A program made the position numbers and the translations under genes. The notes beneath the pieces were generated by a model, which was not told where the DNA came from, did no database searches, and saw nothing but the letters and a program-made list of their open reading frames with translations. Shown in pieces: positions 31,134-39,406 of a stretch of 43,220 bases of DNA. Origin of the DNA: a virus. Its lineage: Duplodnaviria; Heunggongvirae; Uroviricota; Caudoviricetes. Every line of letters starts with the position of its first letter. Within the stretch, counting starts at the first letter, position 1. The stretch lies in the IMG/VR virus record IMGVR_UViG_2526164633_000017; one strand, given 5' to 3'.

Positions 31134-32072
31134 TTAATTACGCAGCAGCGTTGAAATATCAACGTCCAGGTCTAATTCACGGAAAGCCTGACGCAGATAA
31201 TCTTCGTTAACACGCTCACCTTTACCGTGAGCCGTCATGGCGGCAAGGCGAAGTGAATGATTCAGAATGCGAAGCGCACCTGGTTTCTGCGCAATCTGCT
31301 GTAATAACTCCAGTTCTTTTTCACCGTTAATCTGCCAGGCATCCGCAATAGCTTTTACATCGGCTTTTTTGGTTTTATTAATTGCAGTGCGCTTTGCAAT
31401 ACGGGAAAACAGACGGGCAAATTCAACCGTTCTGTTACCCCCCGTCATATTTGAATAAACCCGGTGATTTCCCATCAGCACAAGGCCAATACGGGTTGAT
31501 TCCTGTAACAGGCGGAGTTCTTCCAGAACCTCGGCACCAAGATGATCAGCTTCGTCGATGATAACCAGCCCCTGTGTACCTTCAAGGCGACGTCGCAGGG
31601 CGCGGGAGAGCGGCCCTTTACGGCGTGGTGCGTCATTCATTCCCAGCTCAAACGCCAGTTCAGTAAGACATTCCAGAACGCTGGCACAGGATGGCGTAAT
31701 GGTGATCATCCAGACATTGTTATTGGTGCGGCGATATTCACGGGCCGCTTCGGTTTTACCCACACCAGGATTGCCACATACAACAGCAATACTTTCAGTC
31801 AGGCTGGCAAAACGCATACTTGTCCAGATTTGTTTTACCGTCTGCGTTTCCACAAAGCGGGGCGGCTCAGGTAGTTCTGCAACTGCATGATATTTTTCCA
31901 GCCAGCGTTGCAGAATTTGTGAAACACGCTCGTTATCCCCGTTGTACTTATCATTGATAAAACTACTGATAGTTCCGGTAGAAAGCCCGCTCTCAAGAGC
32001 AATTTGTTTAAAGGTGGTTTCTTCATTTTCTACAAGCGTGCGCAGTTCTGCGCGAATATCGGAAATATTCAT
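31134..32072 (-). CDS. B: DNA transposition ATPase (MuB-like, AAA+)
   Basis: 312-aa ORF with Walker A GNPGVGKTE and Walker B VIIDEADHL; N-terminal HTH; immediately after transposase gene. Confidence 0.9.
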   Translation of the reverse strand: MNISDIRAELRTLVENEETTFKQIALESGLSTGTISSFINDKYNGDNERVSQILQRWLEKYHAVAELPEPPRFVETQTVKQIWTSMRFASLTESIAVVCGNPGVGKTEAAREYRRTNNNVWMITITPSCASVLECLTELAFELGMNDAPRRKGPLSRALRRRLEGTQGLVIIDEADHLGAEVLEELRLLQESTRIGLVLMGNHRVYSNMTGGNRTVEFARLFSRIAKRTAINKTKKADVKAIADAWQINGEKELELLQQIAQKPGALRILNHSLRLAAMTAHGKGERVNEDYLRQAFRELDLDVDISTLLRN

Positions 32073-32110: not shown

Positions 32111-34204
32111 TTAAATGGCTTTTTTACGTCTGTTCTGTTCCAGAATATCCAGCGAATGATTCAGATATTCATCACGCTCAGTTTCGTATTCATCATCATG
32201 CTCTTCCTCACACCTCAACGGCTGAACGGTCACCACATTACCAACAGGGCGATAAACATTATCCAGCCAGGGTTCTATCGTTTTTTGTTCAATAACCTGA
32301 ATACCTTCATCCTCAGCATCACGTATTTTTTCCTCAGCACGCTTGCGCATTCCTTTAATACGTTGCTGTTGTTTGTGATATTCAGCCGTAACAGGAAAGG
32401 CTGCGCGTTTATTGCCGTTCCATATCGCCTCACAGATAAAGCTACCGTCCTTACGGCGTACCGTAATTCGCTCGGCATCGTGAATGTCATAGCTGATAAG
32501 TACCTTGCGACCATGTTCATCACGTAGCTCTGGCGCGTAGTAAATATTGTTCAGCCACTGGATTTCGCAGCGTCTTACCGGACGCTCCACCATCGGGCGG
32601 AACATGTCACGCAGCTCAATATCACTCAGCCACTCAATTTCAGTGTCTTCTTCCGCTAAGCGTTTTTTTCTGAACTCTGCCGGGCTGTAATGTTTTCCGT
32701 TTGGTTTCATCGGCAATTCAGAATGTGGGCGGTTGTTGTACCACTCCACCCCCTCACGGATAGCCTCAATCAGTTCTGACCAAGACGGCAGCTCGCGCAT
32801 TGCGGCTTTCTGACGGGCGCTCAGTGGCTTGTCCTGTTGCAGGGCATTAAACGCTGAACGCAGATCACGATTAAGTACTCGCAACGATTCCCGGTCAGCC
32901 CCCTTGCCGAAATAGGTGCGATACCTCCTTGCTATACGCATCGGTAACGTCCGGTTCAGGCGCTCAATAATGCCGCGTCCCTGCGGATTTCCCGCAATAC
33001 CAGTGGGGTGGTTAATCCCCAGGCGGGGCAGAATCCCGACGATCTCTTTATCCAGCATATCTGCCGTTTCACCGGAACCATTATCCGAGTAATACAGGAA
33101 TGGTTTTCCGTGATTGCGAATGCCGTGTTGTATCGCCCCGGCAACAGCGAACACGTTCTCCGCAAGATCAAGACTCCAGCCAACCACAAACCGGGTTCCA
33201 CCGTCGATCACAAACGTAACTTCCGGTGAAAATGGACGCCCGTGAACCGGATGCGCACATTTCAGCTTCATACCGTGACCGTCACCAATCCAGACATAAT
33301 TCACCGGCATAGCTGTCCAGTCGCGGCGGGTGAATCCTTCAAGCTGACGGTATTCACTGCCGGTAACGCGCCCTTTTTGTTTCACCACTTCCGGCAGTTT
33401 TTTCATGGCATACCGGACAACATCATAGGAAGGCATCACCTCCAGCATGTATGGTTCGTCCGCATGGCGACGCTGCCAATCAGCGACAAAATCCTCGTAT
33501 GCTTCTGACATAGGCCTGCCGTTAGCCTGACGATACTGCGCCAGAAATTCAGGCAGCCAGCTAATTTCTTCCGGTTTTATTTCGTCGCGCTTTCCTGGTG
33601 CCAGTAACAGCAATCGTTCTGCGGCATTCTGTGCTTTGTTAAACGCAGCTATCCAACGTTTGAGCGTAATTGCGCTCAGAGTTCGCTCTTTCCCTTTACG
33701 GGCATTAGCAGTAATGACCAAAGATTCCAGGCGTTCTTCCAGGTTACCCTGCGCTAACCGCGACACAATAAAACGTATAGCGCTGGCACAACTGAATCCC
33801 GGCTCCTGGCTAATTCGTAGAACTTCACAGACAAGAGCAATACGCGCTTCTGCAACTTTACGTTGATTTTCCGTAAGCGCATTCAGACGCTCTTCTACCA
33901 ATTGTGGCGAACCGCGATATGCCTCAACAGGCTGTACAACATTTTGTTTGCGTTCACGCTTTACAGGAGGCTGGGTAGTTATCTCCTGCGGGGCGGTTGC
34001 CATCAGTTGAGCTACATGGCGCTCACGTAACGCCCGTTGTGTAACCGGAGGGAGGCAGTCGATGCTGTATTCAATGGTTTTTGAACCCGCACGTTTGCGC
34101 CTGAAATGCTCAGATGAGGCCAGTTTCCTTATGGAATACCGCACCCCTTGCGCAGTTCCCGGCATACCCGGTAGCCCTACAAGCTCATTAACTGACACAA
34201 ACAT
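32111..34204 (-). CDS. A: DDE transposase (MuA family)
   Basis: 697-aa ORF; N-terminal winged-helix-like DNA-binding region, DDE-type core (IGDGHG...), C-terminus ...DEYETERDEYLNHSLDILEQNRRKKAI. Confidence 0.9.
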   Translation of the reverse strand: MFVSVNELVGLPGMPGTAQGVRYSIRKLASSEHFRRKRAGSKTIEYSIDCLPPVTQRALRERHVAQLMATAPQEITTQPPVKRERKQNVVQPVEAYRGSPQLVEERLNALTENQRKVAEARIALVCEVLRISQEPGFSCASAIRFIVSRLAQGNLEERLESLVITANARKGKERTLSAITLKRWIAAFNKAQNAAERLLLLAPGKRDEIKPEEISWLPEFLAQYRQANGRPMSEAYEDFVADWQRRHADEPYMLEVMPSYDVVRYAMKKLPEVVKQKGRVTGSEYRQLEGFTRRDWTAMPVNYVWIGDGHGMKLKCAHPVHGRPFSPEVTFVIDGGTRFVVGWSLDLAENVFAVAGAIQHGIRNHGKPFLYYSDNGSGETADMLDKEIVGILPRLGINHPTGIAGNPQGRGIIERLNRTLPMRIARRYRTYFGKGADRESLRVLNRDLRSAFNALQQDKPLSARQKAAMRELPSWSELIEAIREGVEWYNNRPHSELPMKPNGKHYSPAEFRKKRLAEEDTEIEWLSDIELRDMFRPMVERPVRRCEIQWLNNIYYAPELRDEHGRKVLISYDIHDAERITVRRKDGSFICEAIWNGNKRAAFPVTAEYHKQQQRIKGMRKRAEEKIRDAEDEGIQVIEQKTIEPWLDNVYRPVGNVVTVQPLRCEEEHDDEYETERDEYLNHSLDILEQNRRKKAI

Positions 34205-34206
34205 TT

Positions 34207-34443
34207 TTATGCCACCTTACGAGCGTAACGGCTGGGCCAGATCTCCTCCGGCGCAACACCAATAGCATCAGCAATAATGCGCTCATATTTTGGGCATTTG
34301 CGGTACAGGGCATTCTTTAAAGAATCCTGGTTTAAACCGGCTTCAATGGACAGAGAGCGTAAAGTAAAACCTTTTACATGCACCGCCGCGACAACATGCG
34401 CGGGGTGCCAGTCCTGTTTAACAACTTCATTTATAGACATCAT
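34207..34443 (-). CDS. ner: Ner-like DNA-binding regulator (Nlp/Ner family)
   Basis: ORF track 34207..34515; conserved Ner-type sequence starts at the internal ATGATG (34438-34443): MSINEVVKQDWHPAHVVAAV...IIADAIGVAPEEIWPSRY. Confidence 0.8.
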   Translation of the reverse strand: MMSINEVVKQDWHPAHVVAAVHVKGFTLRSLSIEAGLNQDSLKNALYRKCPKYERIIADAIGVAPEEIWPSRYARKVA

Positions 34444-34623
34444 TCGTTTATCCTTAAAAGTTATCTGTGCGGATAACACCGCCGGATAATCTCTGCGGAT
34501 AAAGTATTGATCCACATGTGGCGCATGTAAAGCAAAAATTTGATTTTCTTTTGCCTGATGTGGATCATCTGTGTTTTCTATTGAAATTATCCTTTTGTAT
34601 CAATTAGATAAGAGGAAAGAAAA
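34444..34623. promoter_or_regulatory. Divergent early promoter/operator region between ner and repressor gene
   Basis: Three direct repeats GCGGATAA/CCGGATAA at 34469, 34482 and 34495 (13-bp spacing); palindrome TTATC-N6-GATAA (34461-34476); inverted pair TGATCCACA (34508-34516) / TGTGGATCA (34559-34567); 10-bp palindrome CCACATGTGG (34511-34520). Confidence 0.6.
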
Positions 34624-35169
34624 ATGGATAAGCTGAAAGGAAAGTCACTTTCTTTGCCGGAAGTGACAAAAGAAAGTATCCCGGAGCGTTTGAGAGAATT
34701 AATTGGAAAAAGAAGTGTAAGGGCTGCTGCGAAAGATTGGGGGTTGTCTTTTTCTACTTTAAACAATTACCTGACGCGAGGTACTGAACCTTCACTCAGT
34801 GTGGCTCGGCAGATAGCTGCAATTGAAGGGGTTACTATCGAATGGATATGTGGATCACATGATGATTCATATGAGAATCACCCAATTTCAACTAACACGC
34901 ATAATGAGAATACAAAACTCATTATGAACATCATTAACGCCTTGGATGCAAAGGATATTGAGCGACTATCTAAGACTCTTGCCCTCAATGGTGCTAAGTA
35001 TCTGACTCAAATGTTGGAACCCGAAAATCAAGGCTTACTGCGTCTTGAAGGACGAAAACGTGTCGCCGCGCTGCTATTAGATGATTTACCTGATGAGCGT
35101 ATCAGAGAGATTTTGGAAGAAATTGAGAGCAGCAAACTCTCAAGTAGTGTAAAATCGAGAGCGGGCTAG
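34624..35169 (+). CDS. c: Prophage repressor (Mu c-like)
   Basis: 181-aa ORF divergent from ner-A-B operon; HTH-like segment (VRAAAKDWGLSFSTLNNYLTRG); RBS AGGAAAG upstream. Confidence 0.75.
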   Translation: MDKLKGKSLSLPEVTKESIPERLRELIGKRSVRAAAKDWGLSFSTLNNYLTRGTEPSLSVARQIAAIEGVTIEWICGSHDDSYENHPISTNTHNENTKLIMNIINALDAKDIERLSKTLALNGAKYLTQMLEPENQGLLRLEGRKRVAALLLDDLPDERIREILEEIESSKLSSSVKSRAG

Positions 35170-35233: not shown

Positions 35234-35389
35234 AGTATCAAATATTTTTTCGTTTTTAGCTTTCTTTGCGATGGTAGTATCAAATCGCATGTTGTGCGCA
35301 TAACACTGTTTTATGTCATAACTGTTTGTTTTATCCCATCAAATCCCGTTTAATCCACTTTCCTCCCGGATTTTTCACCAGTATCAAAT
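35234..35389. repeat. Three direct repeats (G)TAGTATCAAAT near the Mu-like prophage end; candidate transposase end-binding sites (L1-L3-like)
   Basis: Copies at 35234-35243, 35277-35286 and 35380-35389; distances from the inferred end (about 35395) are roughly 10, 115 and 155 bp, resembling the L1/L2/L3 spacing of Mu attL. Confidence 0.55.
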
Positions 35390-35421
35390 AATTTACCTCT
35401 CTATACGACTATGAGGAGAAA

Positions 35422-35727
35422 TTGCTTATTGCCAGATGGGAACTGACAGCAGAACAGGCTGTTACACAGCAGTTAAAAAATGAGGTGTCAAAAGGAAAAC
35501 TGATTGACACCGGGTTCTGTATTTTTGCCCTCAGTAAGCTGGCAATGGCGTTATCCAGTACGCTTGATTCCATCCCTTTATCCATGCAGCGACAGTTTCC
35601 TGATTTAACACCGCGCCATCTTGACCATCTGAAAACCCTTATTGCGAAGGGGGCAAATCAGTGTGCGCGGGCAGGGGATAAATTACCGGATTTACTCGAT
35701 GAATATATCAGAGCAACAACTGAATAA
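35422..35727 (+). pseudogene. nu1: Lambdoid terminase small subunit (Nu1-like), C-terminal half only; 5' part displaced by Mu-like prophage insertion
   Basis: Reading frame matches the C-terminal half of lambda Nu1 as I recall it (...FCIFALSKLA...LDSIPLSMQRQFP...LLDEYI...); frame hits a stop at 35389-35391 inside the terminal repeat region; no ATG start (track start is TTG). Confidence 0.65.
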
Positions 35728-37627
35728 TATGATGGCTGCCGTTTCGGTTGCGCTGCAGCCTCTGGTCAGGGTTGTACCAATGACGGCAGTTGAATGGGCT
35801 GATCAAAATTATTATCTGCCTAAAGAATCTTCATATGGTGAGGGAGAATGGAAAACGCTGCCATTCCAGATCGCCATTATGAACTGTATGGGTAACGACC
35901 AGGTTCGCACGGTTAACCTGATTAAATCTGCCCGTGTTGGCTATACAAAGATGTTGCTGGGGGTGGTCGGGTATTTTATTGAGCATAAATCCCGAAACAG
36001 TCTGCTTTTTCAGCCCACGGATTCTGCCGCTGAAGATTTTATGAAGTCTCACGTGGAGGCGACGATTCGGAACGTGCCATGCCTGAAAGACCTTTCCCCA
36101 TGGCTGGGTCGTAAACATCGTGACAATACTCTCACGCTGAAACGCTTTTCATCGGGCGTCGGTTTCTGGTGCCTGGGCGGCGCTGCCGCCAAAAACTACC
36201 GTGAAAAATCCGTGGACGTGGTCTGCTATGACGAACTTTCCTCGTTCGAGCCGGATGTCGAAAAAGAGGGCTCGCCAACCCTGCTGGGGGATAAGCGTAT
36301 TGAGGGGTCGGTGTGGCCAAAATCCATTCGCGGCTCGACGCCTAAAATCAAAGGCACCTGCCAGATCGAAAAAGCCGCTAACGAGTCGGCGCATTTTATG
36401 CGTTTTTATGTGCCCTGCCCGCACTGTGGGGAGGAGCAGTATCTGAAATTTGGCGATGAGTCCACGCCTTTTGGGCTTAAATGGGAGAAGGACAGCCCTG
36501 AAAGTGTTTTCTACCTCTGTGAACATCATGGCTGCGTGATCCATCAGTCTGAGCTTGACCAGAGCAACGGGCGGTGGATCTGTGAAAACACGGGCATGTG
36601 GACCCGTGACGGTCTGACGTTTTTCAGCGCCCGGGGTGATGAAATTCCGCCGCCGCGCTCCATCATGTTCCATATCTGGACGGCGTACAGTCCGTTCACC
36701 ACCTGGGTACAGATTGTCTATGACTGGCTGGATGCACTGAAAGATCCCAACGGCCTGAAAACCTTTGTGAACACCACGCTGGGCGAGACCTGGGAAGAGG
36801 CCGTGGGCGAAAAACTCGATCACCAGGTACTGATGGATAAGGTGGTGCGTTACACGGCGGCGGTGCCTGCCCGGGTGGTTTATCTGACGGCGGGCATTGA
36901 CTCGCAGCGAAACCGTTTTGAGATGTATGTCTGGGGATGGGCTCCGGGAGAGGAAGCCTTTCTGGTGGATAAAATCATCATTATGGGGCGTCCTGATGAG
37001 GAAGAGACGCTGTTACGTGTGGATGCGGCGATCAACAAAAAATACCGCCATGCGGATGGCACCGAAATGACTATTTCCCGTGTCTGCTGGGACACCGGGG
37101 GGATCGATGGTGAAATTGTTTATCAGAGATCAAAAAAACACGGTGTTTTCCGGGTGCTGCCGGTAAAAGGCGCATCTGTCTATGGCAAGCCGGTGATCAC
37201 CATGCCAAAAACCCGCAATCAGCGGGGCGTGTATCTGTGTGAAGTGGGAACGGATACCGCAAAAGAAATTCTCTATGCCCGTATGAAAGCCGATCCCACG
37301 CCTGCGGATGAAGCCACGTCGTATGCCATCCGTTTTCCTGATGATCCGGAGATTTTTTCGCAGACAGAGGCGCAGCAACTGGTGGCGGAAGAGCTGGTGG
37401 AGAAGTGGGAAAAAGGAAAGATGCGTCTGCTGTGGGATAACAAAAAGCGGCGTAACGAAGCGCTGGACTGCCTGGTGTATGCCTACGCGGCATTACGTGT
37501 GTCCGTGCAACGCTGGCAGCTTGATCTGGCTGTACTGGCAAAATCCCGGGAAGAAGAGACGACCCGGCCAACCCTGAAAGAACTGGCAGCGAAGCTGTCC
37601 GGAGGAGTGAATGGTTACAGTCGCTGA
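35699..37627 (+). CDS. A: Lambdoid terminase large subunit (gpA-like)
   Basis: ORF track 35642..37627; ATG at 35699 gives MNISEQQLNNMMAAVS...TAVEWADQNYYLPKES..., 642 aa, lambda A-like throughout. Confidence 0.9.
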   Translation: MNISEQQLNNMMAAVSVALQPLVRVVPMTAVEWADQNYYLPKESSYGEGEWKTLPFQIAIMNCMGNDQVRTVNLIKSARVGYTKMLLGVVGYFIEHKSRNSLLFQPTDSAAEDFMKSHVEATIRNVPCLKDLSPWLGRKHRDNTLTLKRFSSGVGFWCLGGAAAKNYREKSVDVVCYDELSSFEPDVEKEGSPTLLGDKRIEGSVWPKSIRGSTPKIKGTCQIEKAANESAHFMRFYVPCPHCGEEQYLKFGDESTPFGLKWEKDSPESVFYLCEHHGCVIHQSELDQSNGRWICENTGMWTRDGLTFFSARGDEIPPPRSIMFHIWTAYSPFTTWVQIVYDWLDALKDPNGLKTFVNTTLGETWEEAVGEKLDHQVLMDKVVRYTAAVPARVVYLTAGIDSQRNRFEMYVWGWAPGEEAFLVDKIIIMGRPDEEETLLRVDAAINKKYRHADGTEMTISRVCWDTGGIDGEIVYQRSKKHGVFRVLPVKGASVYGKPVITMPKTRNQRGVYLCEVGTDTAKEILYARMKADPTPADEATSYAIRFPDDPEIFSQTEAQQLVAEELVEKWEKGKMRLLWDNKKRRNEALDCLVYAYAALRVSVQRWQLDLAVLAKSREEETTRPTLKELAAKLSGGVNGYSR

Positions 37628-37817
37628 ACTGCAGGCGCTGCGTCAGGCGCGCCTTGATTTATTAACCGGTAAACGGGTGGTGTCTGTCCAGAAAGATGGT
37701 CGCAGAATTGAATATACGGCGGCTTCTCTGGATGAGCTTAACCGGGCGATCAATGATGCGGAGTCGGTACTGGGGACAACCCGACGTCGCCGTCGTCCGC
37801 TGGGAGTGAGGTTATGA
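37611..37817 (+). CDS. W: Head-tail joining protein (gpW-like)
   Basis: 68-aa ORF ...LLTGKRVVSVQKDGRRIEYTAASL... Confidence 0.85.
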   Translation: MVTVAELQALRQARLDLLTGKRVVSVQKDGRRIEYTAASLDELNRAINDAESVLGTTRRRRRPLGVRL

Positions 37818-39406
37818 AACGAACGCCTGTCCTGATTGATGTGAACGGCGTTCCGCTTCGTGAGAGTCTCAGCTACAACGGGGGCGGCGCAGGATTTGGC
37901 GGGCAAATGGCGGAGTGGTTGCCACCGGCGCAGAGTGTCGATGCGGCCCTGCTGCCCGCGTTGCGTCTGGGGAATGCCCGGGCAGATGATCTGGTGCGCA
38001 ATAACGGAATAGCGGCTAATGCGGTGGCCCTGCATAAGGATCACATTGTCGGGCATATGTTTCTGATCAGCTACCGTCCGAACTGGCGCTGGCTGGGGAT
38101 GCGGGAGACCGCAGCAAAAAGCTTTGTCGATGAGGTGGAGGCGGCCTGGTCGGAATACGCAGAAGGGATGTCTGGCGAGATCGACGTGGAAGGAAAACGC
38201 ACATTTACGGAGTTTATCCGTGAAGGTGTTGGCGTTCATGCGTTTAACGGCGAAATCTTTGTGCAGCCGGTCTGGGATACGGAAACCACGCAGTTATTCC
38301 GTACGCGTTTTAAAGCCGTGAGTCCGAAACGGGTGGACACGCCAGGACACGGTATGGGGAACCGTTTTCTGCGGGCCGGGGTGGAGGTCGATCGATATGG
38401 CCGTGCCGTTGCGTACCATATCTGTGAGGATGATTTTCCTCGCTCCGGGAGTGGACGATGGGAACGGATCCCGCGTGAACTTCCCACCGGGCGTCCGGCC
38501 ATGCTGCATATTTTCGAGCCGGTGGAGGACGGGCAGACCCGTGGGGCTAATCAGTTTTACAGCGTCATGGAACGGCTGAAGATGCTGGATTCCCTGCAGG
38601 CAACACAGCTTCAGTCGGCCATTGTGAAAGCCATGTATGCAGCGACGATTGAAAGTGAACTTGATACCGAAAAGGCCTTTGAATATATCGCCGGCGCGCC
38701 ACAGGAGCAGAAGGATAATCCGCTTATTAATATTCTGGAGAAGTTCTCCAGCTGGTATGACACGAATAACGTGACACTGGGCGGTGTCAAAATTCCGCAC
38801 CTTTTCCCTGGTGATGATCTGAAACTACAGACTGCGCAGGATTCAGACAATGGATTTTCTGCGCTTGAACAGGCGCTGCTGCGGTATATCGCCGCCGGTC
38901 TTGGCGTTTCCTACGAACAGTTGTCCCGTGATTACTCGAAGGTCAGTTATTCAAGTGCCAGGGCCTCTGCCAATGAGTCGTGGCGCTATTTTATGGGGCG
39001 GCGAAAATTTATTGCGGCCCGGCTGGCCACGCAGATGTTTTCCTGCTGGCTGGAAGAGGCACTTCTTCGGGGGATTATCCGTCCGCCACGGGCGCGTTTT
39101 GATTTTTATCAGGCGCGATCAGCCTGGTCACGGGCAGAGTGGATTGGTGCCGGAAGAATGGCCATTGACGGGCTCAAGGAGGTTCAGGAATCGGTGATGC
39201 GCATTGAGGCCGGACTGAGCACGTATGAGAAAGAGCTGGCGCTGATGGGCGAGGATTATCAGGACATTTTCCGCCAGCAGGTCAGGGAATCTGCAGAGCG
39301 GCAAAAAGCCGGACTCTCACGTCCGGTGTGGATAGCGCAGGCGTATCAGCAGCAGATAGCGGAGAGTCGCAGGCCGGAAGAGGAGACAACACCACGTGAG
39401 ACGTAA
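37814..39406 (+). CDS. B: Lambdoid portal protein (gpB-like)
   Basis: 530-aa ORF following W. Confidence 0.9.
   Translation: MKRTPVLIDVNGVPLRESLSYNGGGAGFGGQMAEWLPPAQSVDAALLPALRLGNARADDLVRNNGIAANAVALHKDHIVGHMFLISYRPNWRWLGMRETAAKSFVDEVEAAWSEYAEGMSGEIDVEGKRTFTEFIREGVGVHAFNGEIFVQPVWDTETTQLFRTRFKAVSPKRVDTPGHGMGNRFLRAGVEVDRYGRAVAYHICEDDFPRSGSGRWERIPRELPTGRPAMLHIFEPVEDGQTRGANQFYSVMERLKMLDSLQATQLQSAIVKAMYAATIESELDTEKAFEYIAGAPQEQKDNPLINILEKFSSWYDTNNVTLGGVKIPHLFPGDDLKLQTAQDSDNGFSALEQALLRYIAAGLGVSYEQLSRDYSKVSYSSARASANESWRYFMGRRKFIAARLATQMFSCWLEEALLRGIIRPPRARFDFYQARSAWSRAEWIGAGRMAIDGLKEVQESVMRIEAGLSTYEKELALMGEDYQDIFRQQVRESAERQKAGLSRPVWIAQAYQQQIAESRRPEEETTPRET

Follow-up and report, generated by a model that had tools for sequence, protein, structure and literature searches.

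The 180 bp between a ner-like gene and a divergently transcribed repressor gene, positions 34444-34623 of the analysed window (the whole stretch of 43,220 nucleotides), make up the entire ner-repressor intergenic region and serve a Mu-like transposable prophage as its early control region, which governs lysis and lysogeny. Comparison with related prophages points, with a probability of roughly two in three, to two separable operator sets around a single early promoter, of which a phased array of GGATAA-type units beside ner is most likely the Ner operator, not an immunity determinant, while an inverted pair of TGATCCAC(A) cores is most likely the operator of the repressor. The initial annotation had read these motifs as one joint operator for repressor and Ner; operator-like sites around the early promoter were indeed found, but they fall into two separate sets. 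The switch is an ordinary, hitherto uncharacterised example of a known phage-switch type, and the general picture of Mu-type switches is unchanged.

The divergent control region that had been proposed is borne out by a ner homologue on one side and a repressor gene placed like Mu c on the other; near the left end, the order of genes is that of the Mu record, with the repressor gene first, ner next in the opposite orientation, and A and B following it. The ner-like gene (34207-34443, minus strand, 78 aa) is the first gene of the early operon and is followed by a MuA-like gene (32111-34204) and a MuB-like gene (31134-32072). Its product, annotated as WP_000987079.1 in E. coli genomes, shares 46% identity with Mu Ner and 48% with D108 Ner, belongs to the Pfam family HTH_35 (2.9e-25, 88.5 bits against a cutoff of 25), and matches EnrR (7f9h, the best PDB match, 3.6e-17) and Mu Ner (1neq, 6e-13). 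Further Pfam matches in the early operon are Mu-transpos_C in the transposase and Phage-MuB_C, and the transposase retains the Mu-type N-terminal DNA-binding domain (HTH_Tnp_Mu_1, residues 7-78).

The repressor (34624-35169, plus strand, 181 aa) combines an XRE-type helix-turn-helix N-terminus with a Mu c-related C-terminal half. It matches phrog_3037 "transcriptional repressor" at 4.9e-58, and its N-terminus matches XRE/CI-type families only (HTH_3, Phage_CI_repr, phrog_3037, phrog_8 and phrog_4), the Pfam scores lying below cutoff (21.5 bits against 23 for HTH_3 and 17 against 22 for Phage_CI_repr); a near-identical copy is annotated by NCBI as an XRE family regulator. Residues 86-175 match phrog_7148, the family of Mu c and D108 c (3.7e-6), residues 90-185 of Mu c reciprocally match phrog_3037 (1.1e-4), and BLASTP aligns LLLDDLPDERIREIL with MMLDALPEEKRKEIL, a weak but reciprocal relationship suggesting that the C-terminal oligomerisation/regulatory half is homologous to that of Mu c. 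The Mu-type winged-helix N-terminus shared with MuA was not found in the repressor, and the transposase family phrog_310 was matched by the N-termini of Mu c and D108 c but not by this one. The XRE-type DNA-binding domain is a departure from Mu, where c and MuA share a winged helix; because of it, the operators should be unable to double as a transposase-bound enhancer via a shared domain, and Mu-style sharing of sites between repressor and transposase appears unlikely here.

Promoter prediction, which had been recommended for this region, found a putative early promoter Pe reading into ner (34503-34531, minus strand), with a -35 hexamer TTTACA (34531-26), a 17-bp spacer and a -10 hexamer AATACT (34508-03), as the only sigma-70-like match within 34350-34720. 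The hexamers and their spacing are invariant across nine immunity types (alignment A2), with the variable island lying exactly in the spacer, and the -35 block GCTTTACA is the same as in the annotated Mu early promoter (991-1028). A GATC at 34509-12, likewise invariant in the nine immunity types, abuts the -10. A transcription start near 34496 is predicted from the position of the -10 alone. In one near-identical copy (L002), the sole SNP in 1.2 kb falls in the -10, at 34505.

The same scan of 34350-34720 yielded no convincing repressor promoter, which counts against the two-operator reading. Two candidates were considered, namely TTGATT-N17-GATCAT (34540-68), which overlaps the right-hand repressor site described below and is not conserved, and a -10-like block before the conserved TCAAT, TATAAT in some relatives and TTGTAT in the window, which is without a -35.

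The array beside ner contains the three direct repeats at exact 13-bp spacing reported initially, with GGATAA starting at 34471, 34484 and 34497. Their full forms are GCGGATAA at 34469-76 (U2), GCCGGATAA, with one extra base, at 34481-89 on the plus strand (U3), and GCGGATAA again at 34495-502 on the plus strand (U4), the last abutting the Pe -10 and covering the predicted start at about 34496. The palindrome TTATC-N6-GATAA noted beforehand is likewise present at 34461-34476, where it joins TTATC (U1, 34461-65) to U2. One more unit, not noticed initially, is TTATCC at 34448-34453 (U0; GGATAA when read on the ner-coding strand), which shares bases with the ner Shine-Dalgarno sequence and keeps the 13-bp register of the TTATC at 34461. 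The array as a whole (34448-34502) occupies the DNA between the ner ribosome-binding site and the predicted start of Pe. A 6-mer present in three evenly spaced copies arose in only 2 of 5000 dinucleotide-preserving shuffles of the 180 bp, so the repeat is significant, whereas some 5-N6-5 palindrome arose in 1107 of 5000 (22%) and is not significant alone; a perfect 9-bp inverted pair like the one discussed below arose in 427 of 5000 (8.5%) and is not significant alone either. For the palindrome and the inverted pair, support therefore comes from comparative data only.

The wider abundance of the motif was considered as a possible set of scattered Ner sites and rejected. CGGATAA occurs 21 times in the window against a shuffle expectation of 4.2, and GGATAA 55 times against 14.5, in mixed frames and on both strands; with the E. 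coli chromosomal flanks at much the same density (0.59 against 0.46 per kb), only the local cluster is meaningful.

Across 13 Ner types (alignment A3), motif blocks recur about 13 columns apart (at approximately columns 9, 22, 35 and 47), the register being constant and the unit sequences variable. TTATC-N6-GATAA is kept in NerA and NerB loci irrespective of repressor type, the counterpart of U3 is inverted (GTGTTATCC) in NerB loci, and NerB and NerC loci carry GATAAC-N8-GTTATC upstream of ner. In four loci with the same repressor type and another Ner (L015, L016, L056 and L058), the array is replaced by TTGATAAC-N8-GTTATCAA. The unit flanks co-vary with the helix-3 motif of Ner, whose position as recognition helix was predicted by analogy with Mu Ner: CGGATAAC goes with DSLKNAL, and TTGATAAC with NNLYNAV. 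Because the array follows the Ner type and lies downstream of the predicted Pe start, ahead of the ner ribosome-binding site, its most likely role is that of Ner operator.

The modular nature of the region was assessed in 32 distinct ner-repressor intergenic regions from related prophages. Similarity over the 58 bp nearest ner correlates with identity between the Ner proteins (rho 0.85, Mantel p 0.0005) and not with identity between the repressors (rho 0.04, p 0.27). For the part nearest the repressor gene, the correlation is with the repressor N-terminus (rho 0.63, p 0.0005) instead of with Ner (rho 0.11, p 0.12). Where two loci share their Ner and differ in repressor (47 pairs), identity is 95% in the ner-proximal part and 55% in the other; the Yersinia phage vB_YpM_5 and E. 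coli S6, for instance, possess the same Ner with unrelated repressor N-termini (46% identity). Three Ner types are each paired with two or three repressor types, and the helix-turn-helix type of this repressor is paired with several Ner types, the junction being the invariant Pe core. The array also lies in physical linkage with ner and with the sequence for the transposase N-terminus, a domain that likewise varies by type, so that co-inheritance alone would give much of the correlation and the transposase N-terminus is not cleanly separated from Ner as a protein that might bind the array.

Binding of the array by the Mu-type winged-helix domain at the transposase N-terminus, for which it would be a transposition enhancer, or by a host factor in place of Ner is quite an unlikely alternative. 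The Mu-type N-terminal domain is kept in the transposase and is unrelated to the DNA-binding domain of the repressor, so an enhancer, if there is one, needs sites of its own, and with the transposase gene linked to ner, co-variation separates the two proteins incompletely. In Mu, however, the enhancer is on the side of Pe that faces the repressor gene, outside the ner leader, whereas the array is positioned like the D108 repeat and the NerB and NerC loci share its N8 inverted-repeat geometry. One relative (L007) keeps the array with a Ner that is 96% identical and a transposase only 68% identical over residues 1-90, and the variation of the unit flanks with the Ner helix-3 motif argues in the same direction.

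A single multi-site operator for the repressor, together with Ner, in which the GCGGATAA repeats help to set immunity, is very unlikely in the light of the same comparison. All motifs do lie within one 180-bp divergent region, and in Mu the repressor site O3 is close to the Ner site, as is also seen in the Mu record annotation, so that sites of both kinds adjoin there. Yet the array is 95% identical where the repressor N-terminus is 46% identical and the repressor-proximal DNA unrelated, and it is replaced in phages sharing this repressor type. The claim that the GCGGATAA-type repeats and the palindrome define immunity specificity is not supported in view of the former observation, and judged by conservation among phages with the same repressor type, as the initial annotation proposed, they do not qualify as sites of the repressor or of immunity, since they give way to others along with another Ner. 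By the same measure the TGATCCACA/TGTGGATCA pair does qualify, its 8-bp core being kept at matching positions with this repressor type and absent in other types.

These two elements, TGATCCACA at 34508-16 and TGTGGATCA at 34559-67, form the inverted pair 42 bp apart that had been described beforehand. The pair was said to flank the palindrome CCACATGTGG, which in fact (34512-21) shares bases with the left arm; relatives do not conserve it and have CCACTTGTGA and CCACTTCTGC instead. The left candidate operator, O_L (34508-34525), contains the core TGATCCAC(A) inside the Pe spacer and is an 18-bp pseudo-palindrome with the halves TGATCCACA and TGTGGCGCA, symmetric at 7 of 9 positions in the window and at 5-6 of 9 in relatives, and including a GATC. 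Its core is kept where the repressor type matches (the window, L015, L016, L056, L058 and L021), columns 15-23 of alignment A2 vary with repressor type, and the base following TGATCCA is C, A or T by repressor type. The right candidate operator, O_R (34558-34567, plus strand), is a second copy of the core, ATGTGGATCA, inverted with respect to O_L and also including a GATC. The two 8-bp cores lie 52 bp apart, start to start, in the window. O_R is kept in Rep1a and Rep1b loci, reads TGTGAATCA in L021 and is absent in Rep3 and Rep4 loci; GTGGATCA occupies the same alignment position in Rep1a and Rep1b despite 65-69% identity there, and the TGATCCAC/GTGGATCA cores are 51-54 bp apart in these loci. 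Length variants of a poly-A tract shift the spacing over this range, which weakens the idea of strict helical phasing between O_L and O_R. The pair in L021 consists of TTGATCCACAAGTGAG and TTGATTCACATGTGAG, and other repressor types have pairs of their own in equivalent places, such as CCATATATAG/CCATATAAAG and ATCCAAATGTA/ATCCAAATAAA. Against the two-operator reading, O_R has just one good arm.

It is very improbable that the TGATCCACA/TGTGGATCA pair has no operator function, the left element being conserved as Pe spacer and the right a chance match. TGATCCA is invariant in all immunity types compared, as expected from its adjoining the Pe -10, the 8.5% of shuffles with a 9-bp inverted pair agrees with a chance origin, and per-locus shuffle tests of inverted pairs are mostly non-significant in this AT-rich DNA (p 0.01-0.8), so that the argument for the pair rests on positional conservation. 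That conservation is specific, as the diverged Rep1a and Rep1b loci keep GTGGATCA and Rep3 and Rep4 loci lack it, the base after TGATCCA depends on repressor type, and the other types have their own pairs. In addition, two of the three SNPs in another near-identical copy (L003), at 34560 and 34568, cluster at O_R. TGTGGATCA occurs three times in the 43-kb window (0.43 expected), all within 350 bp. The third ATGTGGATCA copy (34848-34857, plus strand) lies in the repressor coding sequence, where it coincides with the codons C-G-S, and was rejected as a distal operator: Rep1b relatives have TGTGGATTCA with changed spacing, and this lack of conservation, which would also suit a chance origin of the pair, indicates that the third copy is probably coincidental or non-essential.

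Between O_L and O_R lies the sole IHF-consensus match of the 43-kb window on either strand, AATCAAATTTTTG (WATCAANNNNTTR) at 34533-34545 on the minus strand; it is not conserved among the relatives compared in alignment A2, and the IHF site is for this reason tentative. Next to it, the block TTTCTTTTG (34545-34553; invariant columns T45-T51 of alignment A2) shows little or no variation among the immunity types compared, and may represent an UP element, part of Pc, or a transposase enhancer site.

The gene identities, motif positions, conservation and co-variation come directly from the analysis; protein-DNA contacts, the transcription start, the role of IHF and cooperation between sites are what we infer in the following model of two operator sets. 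Pe, on the minus strand, would drive ner, A and B. The Ner operator would be the phased array between the ner ribosome-binding site and the predicted Pe start; its four or five GGATAA-type units have cores that fit G-W-T-A-W-C on the ner-coding strand (at 34448, 34461, 34472, 34485 and 34498) with a 13-bp period, and Ner protomers on these units would turn Pe down, giving autoregulation like that by Ner of Mu and D108. The repressor would bind the TGATCCAC(A) cores, excluding RNA polymerase from O_L in the Pe spacer, with O_R, inverted and some 52 bp closer to the repressor gene, as an auxiliary site. The Mu-c-like C-terminal half could let repressors on both sites cooperate across the Pe -35, perhaps aided by an IHF bend at 34533-45, and O_R may autoregulate the repressor promoter. 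Immunity specificity would reside in the repressor with O_L and O_R, while the Ner module would be swapped independently through recombination inside the invariant Pe core.

The layout of such a switch is shared with Mu (O1, IHF site, O2/Pe, O3/Ner site) and with D108 (O1, IHF site, O2/Pe, Ner site), as far as candidate sites predicted from sequence can be equated with these: as in Mu, one operator would lie over Pe and another about 50 bp toward the repressor gene, with the IHF-consensus match between them and Ner-side sites in the ner leader. In the comparison of operator sequences with those of Mu and D108, proposed initially, nothing is shared but the Pe -35 block GCTTTACA, and the consensus repeats of Mu O1-O3 are missing. 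The Ner units are also unlike those of Mu, where the Ner repeats are 12 bp long. In D108, the Ner operator lies upstream of ner and is built from 11-bp inverted repeats separated by 8 bp; CCGTGAGCTAC-N8-GTAGCTCACGG, which we take to be the site footprinted with Ner in the 1980s literature, is placed like the array between Pe and the ner start and has the same N8 inverted geometry as GATAAC-N8-GTTATC of the NerB and NerC relatives. The repeat sequences on the Ner side are unrelated, however, and in place of a single inverted repeat the window has three direct and one or two inverted units with a 13-bp period, the direct orientation counting against the proposed Ner operator. EnrR, a Ner-like protein from Edwardsiella whose DNA complexes have been solved (PDB 7f9h/7f9i), is a monomeric protein of which two copies pack side by side on one short, continuous palindrome (PMC9023278), offering a model for short quasi-symmetric G-W-T-A-W-C units that flip orientation between phage types. 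In contrast to the system considered here, EnrR, a chromosomal nucleoid-associated regulator with AT-rich targets AATAAATNATTTATT (PMC9023278), has neither a phased array nor a phage switch context. The exchange of Ner and repressor modules resembles that of repressor/operator cassettes in the mosaic immunity regions of lambdoid phages, except that here two cassettes meet inside one promoter of a transposable phage. In the papers found on SfMu and Yersinia Mu-like phages, c and Ner are treated in general terms and no operators are described.

A more far-reaching joint reading, in which the exchangeable cassettes in one promoter are combined with a wound Ner array, Dam sensitivity and a separate enhancer, is unlikely as a whole. 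Under it, Ner would act on a 13-bp-phased array of quasi-symmetric G-W-T-A-W-C units wound round the DNA between the Pe start and the ner ribosome-binding site; the GATC beside the Pe -10 and the GATC in each repressor core would make repressor binding or Pe Dam-sensitive; and the invariant GTAAAGCAAA...CTTTCTTTTG block between O_L and O_R would be a transposase enhancer, separate because the DNA-binding domain of the repressor and the transposase N-terminus are no longer related, with the repressor occluding it from either side. GATC in a promoter core, here in Pe with a second GATC in O_R, is likewise found in the Dam-sensitive promoters of IS10 (pIN) and IS50, and Dam sensitivity, if true, would couple transposase expression to replication as in these elements. 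The Ner array, Dam sensitivity and separate enhancer would each be new for Mu-like phages.

With two operator sets as the preferred reading, a concrete operator map becomes available for a group of Mu-like prophages, found in E. coli, Yersinia, Klebsiella and Photorhabdus, in which the repressor combines an XRE-type DNA-binding domain and a Mu-c-like C-terminal half. Superinfection immunity should follow the repressor and the TGATCCAC cores and not the Ner array, and Ner and repressor modules reassort at the conserved early promoter. The map could be used for prophage typing, for the prediction of cross-immunity and for the choice of mutations for induction or virulent derivatives.

That the ner-proximal repeats act in RNA, through a leader hairpin or UUAUCC/GGAUAA pairing with the Shine-Dalgarno sequence controlling ner translation or transcript stability, is highly improbable. 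The leader of 57 nt does fold at -12.5 kcal/mol (z = -2.1; 9 of 200 shuffles fold equally well), and in the alignment fold the Shine-Dalgarno region is paired with a UUAUCC unit. Yet the consensus fold of the 13 Ner types is weak (-2.57 kcal/mol, covariation -0.32, one compensatory pair), and the strong hairpin that NerB and NerC loci could form is lost in the window, with its direct repeats, while the 13-bp register is still kept.

The left end of the prophage (35234-35404, plus strand) features three exact AGTATCAAAT repeats at 35234, 35276 and 35380, and four independent insertions diverge past 35404/35405, which places the left terminus at 35404. The prophage junction of the window was absent from the 5,426 complete E. 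coli genomes searched. The prophage in the window is inserted in a lambdoid nu1 gene and its relatives in other genes, and the same prophage is located at three other E. coli chromosomal sites, ppsR, ycjP and mscM, in three genomes.

The interval 34444-34623 is the exact 180-bp gap separating two divergent genes. On the minus strand, a ner homologue (34207-34443; 78 aa, 46% identity to Mu Ner and 48% to D108 Ner) encodes a product that matches Pfam HTH_35 (2.9e-25) as well as two Ner-like proteins of solved structure, EnrR and Mu Ner, and it is followed by genes for a MuA-like transposase (32111-34204) and a MuB-like ATPase (31134-32072). On the plus strand, a repressor gene (34624-35169; 181 aa) occupies the Mu c position. 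Its product has an XRE/CI-type helix-turn-helix (HTH) N-terminus (phrog_3037, 4.9e-58; Pfam HTH_3 slightly below threshold) and a C-terminal half that, judged from reciprocal cross-hits between phrog_3037 and phrog_7148 plus a short BLASTP match, is homologous to that of the Mu and D108 c repressors. In Mu c, this half carries oligomerisation and the ClpXP-sensitive tail. Compared with Mu c (339-929 of the Mu record L019), the repressor is a domain chimera, the XRE-type HTH replacing the Mu winged helix.

All motifs listed in the initial annotation were recovered from the sequence. GGATAA direct repeats at a 13-bp period start at 34471, 34484 and 34497 (units GCGGATAA, GCCGGATAA and GCGGATAA), the TTATC-N6-GATAA palindrome lies at 34461-76, and the inverted pair TGATCCACA (34508-16) and TGTGGATCA (34559-67) is separated by 42 bp. 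The CCACATGTGG palindrome is present at 34512-21, overlapping the left arm of the pair rather than lying between its members as had been described, and it showed no conservation across the compared loci. An additional TTATCC (34448-53) is in phase with these 13-bp repeats and overlaps the Shine-Dalgarno of ner. Of 5000 dinucleotide-preserving shuffles, two produced three equally spaced 6-mers, while a 9-bp inverted pair appeared in 8.5% and a palindrome of the 5-N6-5 form in 22%; taken singly, only the triple phased repeat reaches significance. Over the whole window, GGATAA (55 versus 14.5 expected from dinucleotide shuffles) and CGGATAA (21 versus 4.2) are in excess, but 20 kb of E. coli chromosomal flanks are equally dense, so that the excess reflects a host-wide oligonucleotide bias and no phage-specific sites.

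These repeats had been proposed to form one joint operator for repressor and Ner that sets immunity. BLAST against E. coli genomes and phages, together with scans of viral and genome contigs, provided 81 usable ner loci, among them 32 distinct intergenic regions from prophages whose repressor is XRE-type, which form a natural mix-and-match set of Ner and repressor types. The window combines Ner type A with repressor class Rep1a; Ner type A is also paired with Rep2, a repressor with an unrelated N-terminus (Yersinia phage vB_YpM_5 and E. coli S6), type B is found with two repressor types and type C with three, and the HTH type of the window's repressor has at least four further Ner types as partners. 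The ner-proximal 58 bp correlated with Ner identity (rho 0.85, Mantel p 0.0005) but showed no such correlation with repressor identity (rho 0.04), which does not support the joint operator, whereas the repressor-proximal part correlated with the repressor N-terminus (rho 0.63, p 0.0005) and not with Ner (rho 0.11). Among 47 pairs with the same Ner and different repressors, the ner-proximal part was 95% identical and the rest 55%. Nor are the GCGGATAA repeats kept with the repressor type: loci of Rep1b, which shares 64% identity with the window's repressor overall and 75% in the HTH region, have TTGATAAC-N8-GTTATCAA in place of the repeats and the palindrome. Since the ner-proximal DNA tracks Ner, the GCGGATAA repeats and TTATC-N6-GATAA belong to the Ner module, with the weak point that the transposase N-terminus is linked to the array just as ner is.

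Alignment of 13 Ner types on the ner-coding strand revealed motif blocks beginning about 13 columns apart (around columns 9, 22, 35 and 47) over the stretch between the promoter -10 and the Shine-Dalgarno, with both unit sequence and apparent orientation differing by Ner type. Where the predicted recognition helix (placed by analogy with Mu Ner) reads DSLKNAL or DTLKNAL, the units are CGGATAAC/GTTATCCG; NNLYNAV goes with TTGATAAC/GTTATCAA and DSLKSVL with GCGGATAT. The three CGGATAAC units of locus L024 are all oriented opposite to the window's three, and NerB units alternate. Most unit cores match G-W-T-A-W-C and are symmetric or nearly so (GATATC, GTTAAC, GGATTATCC). The Ner relative EnrR is monomeric, and two closely packed monomers bind a short palindrome (PMC9023278), a binding mode that the quasi-symmetric units would fit and under which it would be largely a matter of appearance whether repeats are direct or inverted. 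Upstream of ner, NerB and NerC loci have repeats of the GATAAC-N8-GTTATCC type, similar in position to the 11-bp inverted repeat with 8-bp spacer of D108. This D108 repeat is the Ner site known from footprinting. The analysis gave no support for a conserved RNA structure in the leader. More TTATC/GATAA motifs surround the window's repressor start codon (34587-34592, 34607-34611 and 34627-34631); Rep2 phages with the window's Ner have two TTATC and a GGATAT in unrelated repressor-proximal DNA (60 bp in locus L004), and NerC loci have TTGATAGG or GGTTATC there. These could be secondary Ner sites on the repressor promoter, at counts too low to distinguish from AT-rich background.

The only sigma-70-like site of the region is a predicted minus-strand early promoter into ner, Pe (-35 TTTACA 34531-26, 17 bp, -10 AATACT 34508-03); the same scan of the control region found no repressor promoter. 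In an alignment of nine immunity types, both Pe hexamers, their spacing and the adjoining GATCCA were invariant, while two islands changed with repressor type, one inside the spacer and a second about 50 bp nearer the repressor gene. GATC lies inside every TGATCCAC core copy (34509, 34563 and 34853), and the one adjoining the Pe -10 (alignment columns 9-12), invariant in all nine types, is reminiscent of the transposase promoters of IS10 and IS50, which are Dam-sensitive.

The two variable islands contain candidate repressor sites, O_L (TGATCCACATGTGG, in the Pe spacer) and O_R (ATGTGGATCA, in the second island). Rep1a and Rep1b loci keep an 8-bp core in each island, at a distance of 51-54 bp. 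L021 has TTGATCCACAAGTGAG and TTGATTCACATGTGAG; in Rep3 and Rep4 loci the matching pairs are different ones, CCATATATAG/CCATATAAAG and ATCCAAATGTA/ATCCAAATAAA, and Rep2 loci have a direct repeat TCACTACAAAAG/TATCTACAAAAG (p = 0.004). Per-locus repeat statistics are weak, and O_R has just one good arm. In the Rep1b prophages L016, L056, L058 and L107-L110, the run of A residues that separates the Pe -35 from the conserved CTTTCTTTTG block (equivalent to 34533-34537) varies by up to 3 bp in length, which gives the O_L-O_R distance of 51 to 54 bp, a spacing without strict phasing; this variation could be slippage noise or tuning of the switch. Two near-identical copies in other E. coli strains point the same way as the conservation data, albeit as anecdotes. 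The sole SNP in 1.2 kb of the L002 copy (equivalent to 34505) changes the predicted Pe -10 from AATACT to AATGCT and weakens it; of the three in 1.2 kb of the L003 copy, 34560 and 34568 lie in and beside O_R and 34883 inside the repressor coding sequence. These differences may be regulatory mutations in resident prophages.

From the observed gene identities, motif positions and co-variation, we infer a switch, including its binding events, transcript start, IHF role and site-to-site cooperation, in which Pe would transcribe ner, A and B, and repressor at O_L in the Pe spacer would silence this early operon, with O_R in an auxiliary or autoregulatory role. Oligomerisation would come from the Mu-c-like C-terminal half, and through it molecules bound at O_L and O_R may cooperate over the -35, perhaps together with IHF. 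The IHF consensus WATCAANNNNTTR has a single match on both strands of the 43-kb window, at 34533-45 between O_L and O_R, and this match was not conserved among relatives. Once produced, Ner would fill the phased units, which extend from the transcript start as far as the ner ribosome-binding site, and lower Pe. Immunity specificity would reside in the repressor and the O_L/O_R cores, and the Ner cassette would be swapped independently via recombination in the invariant promoter core.

Comparison with the Mu and D108 operators gave a match in layout (repressor, O1, IHF site, O2/Pe, Ner site, ner) and a -35 block, GCTTTACA, shared with the annotated Mu early promoter, but the site sequences are unrelated. 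The main difference from Mu is the XRE-type DNA-binding domain of the repressor, while the transposase retains a Mu-type N-terminal domain; Mu-style sharing of sites between operator and enhancer therefore cannot work in the same way. The publications located on the close relatives SfMu and Yersinia Mu-like phages describe no operators.

The prophage is truly transposable: in three E. coli genomes, near-identical copies disrupt ppsR, ycjP and mscM, and divergence of all copies begins past 35404. The Mu-like prophage ends at this position, and a lambdoid packaging module lies beyond (35405-39406), in which a Nu1 remnant (35422-35727) retaining only the C-terminal half (Pfam positions 86-163 of 164) is followed by genes for terminase gpA and a portal protein of the lambda family. 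The insertion of the transposable prophage lies within the small-terminase gene of a lambdoid prophage; that gene is uninterrupted in 1292 of 5426 E. coli genomes searched, and the window's junction was absent from all genomes searched. The left end presumably has CCGGGAGGA...TGGATTA...CGGGAT.TGATGGGAT in common with that of Mu. Within its 235 bp, AGTATCAAAT occurs three times exactly (35234-35243, 35276-35285 and 35380-35389), with no further mismatch-free copy elsewhere in the window, and by analogy with Mu L1-L3 these copies are likely transposase end-binding sites.
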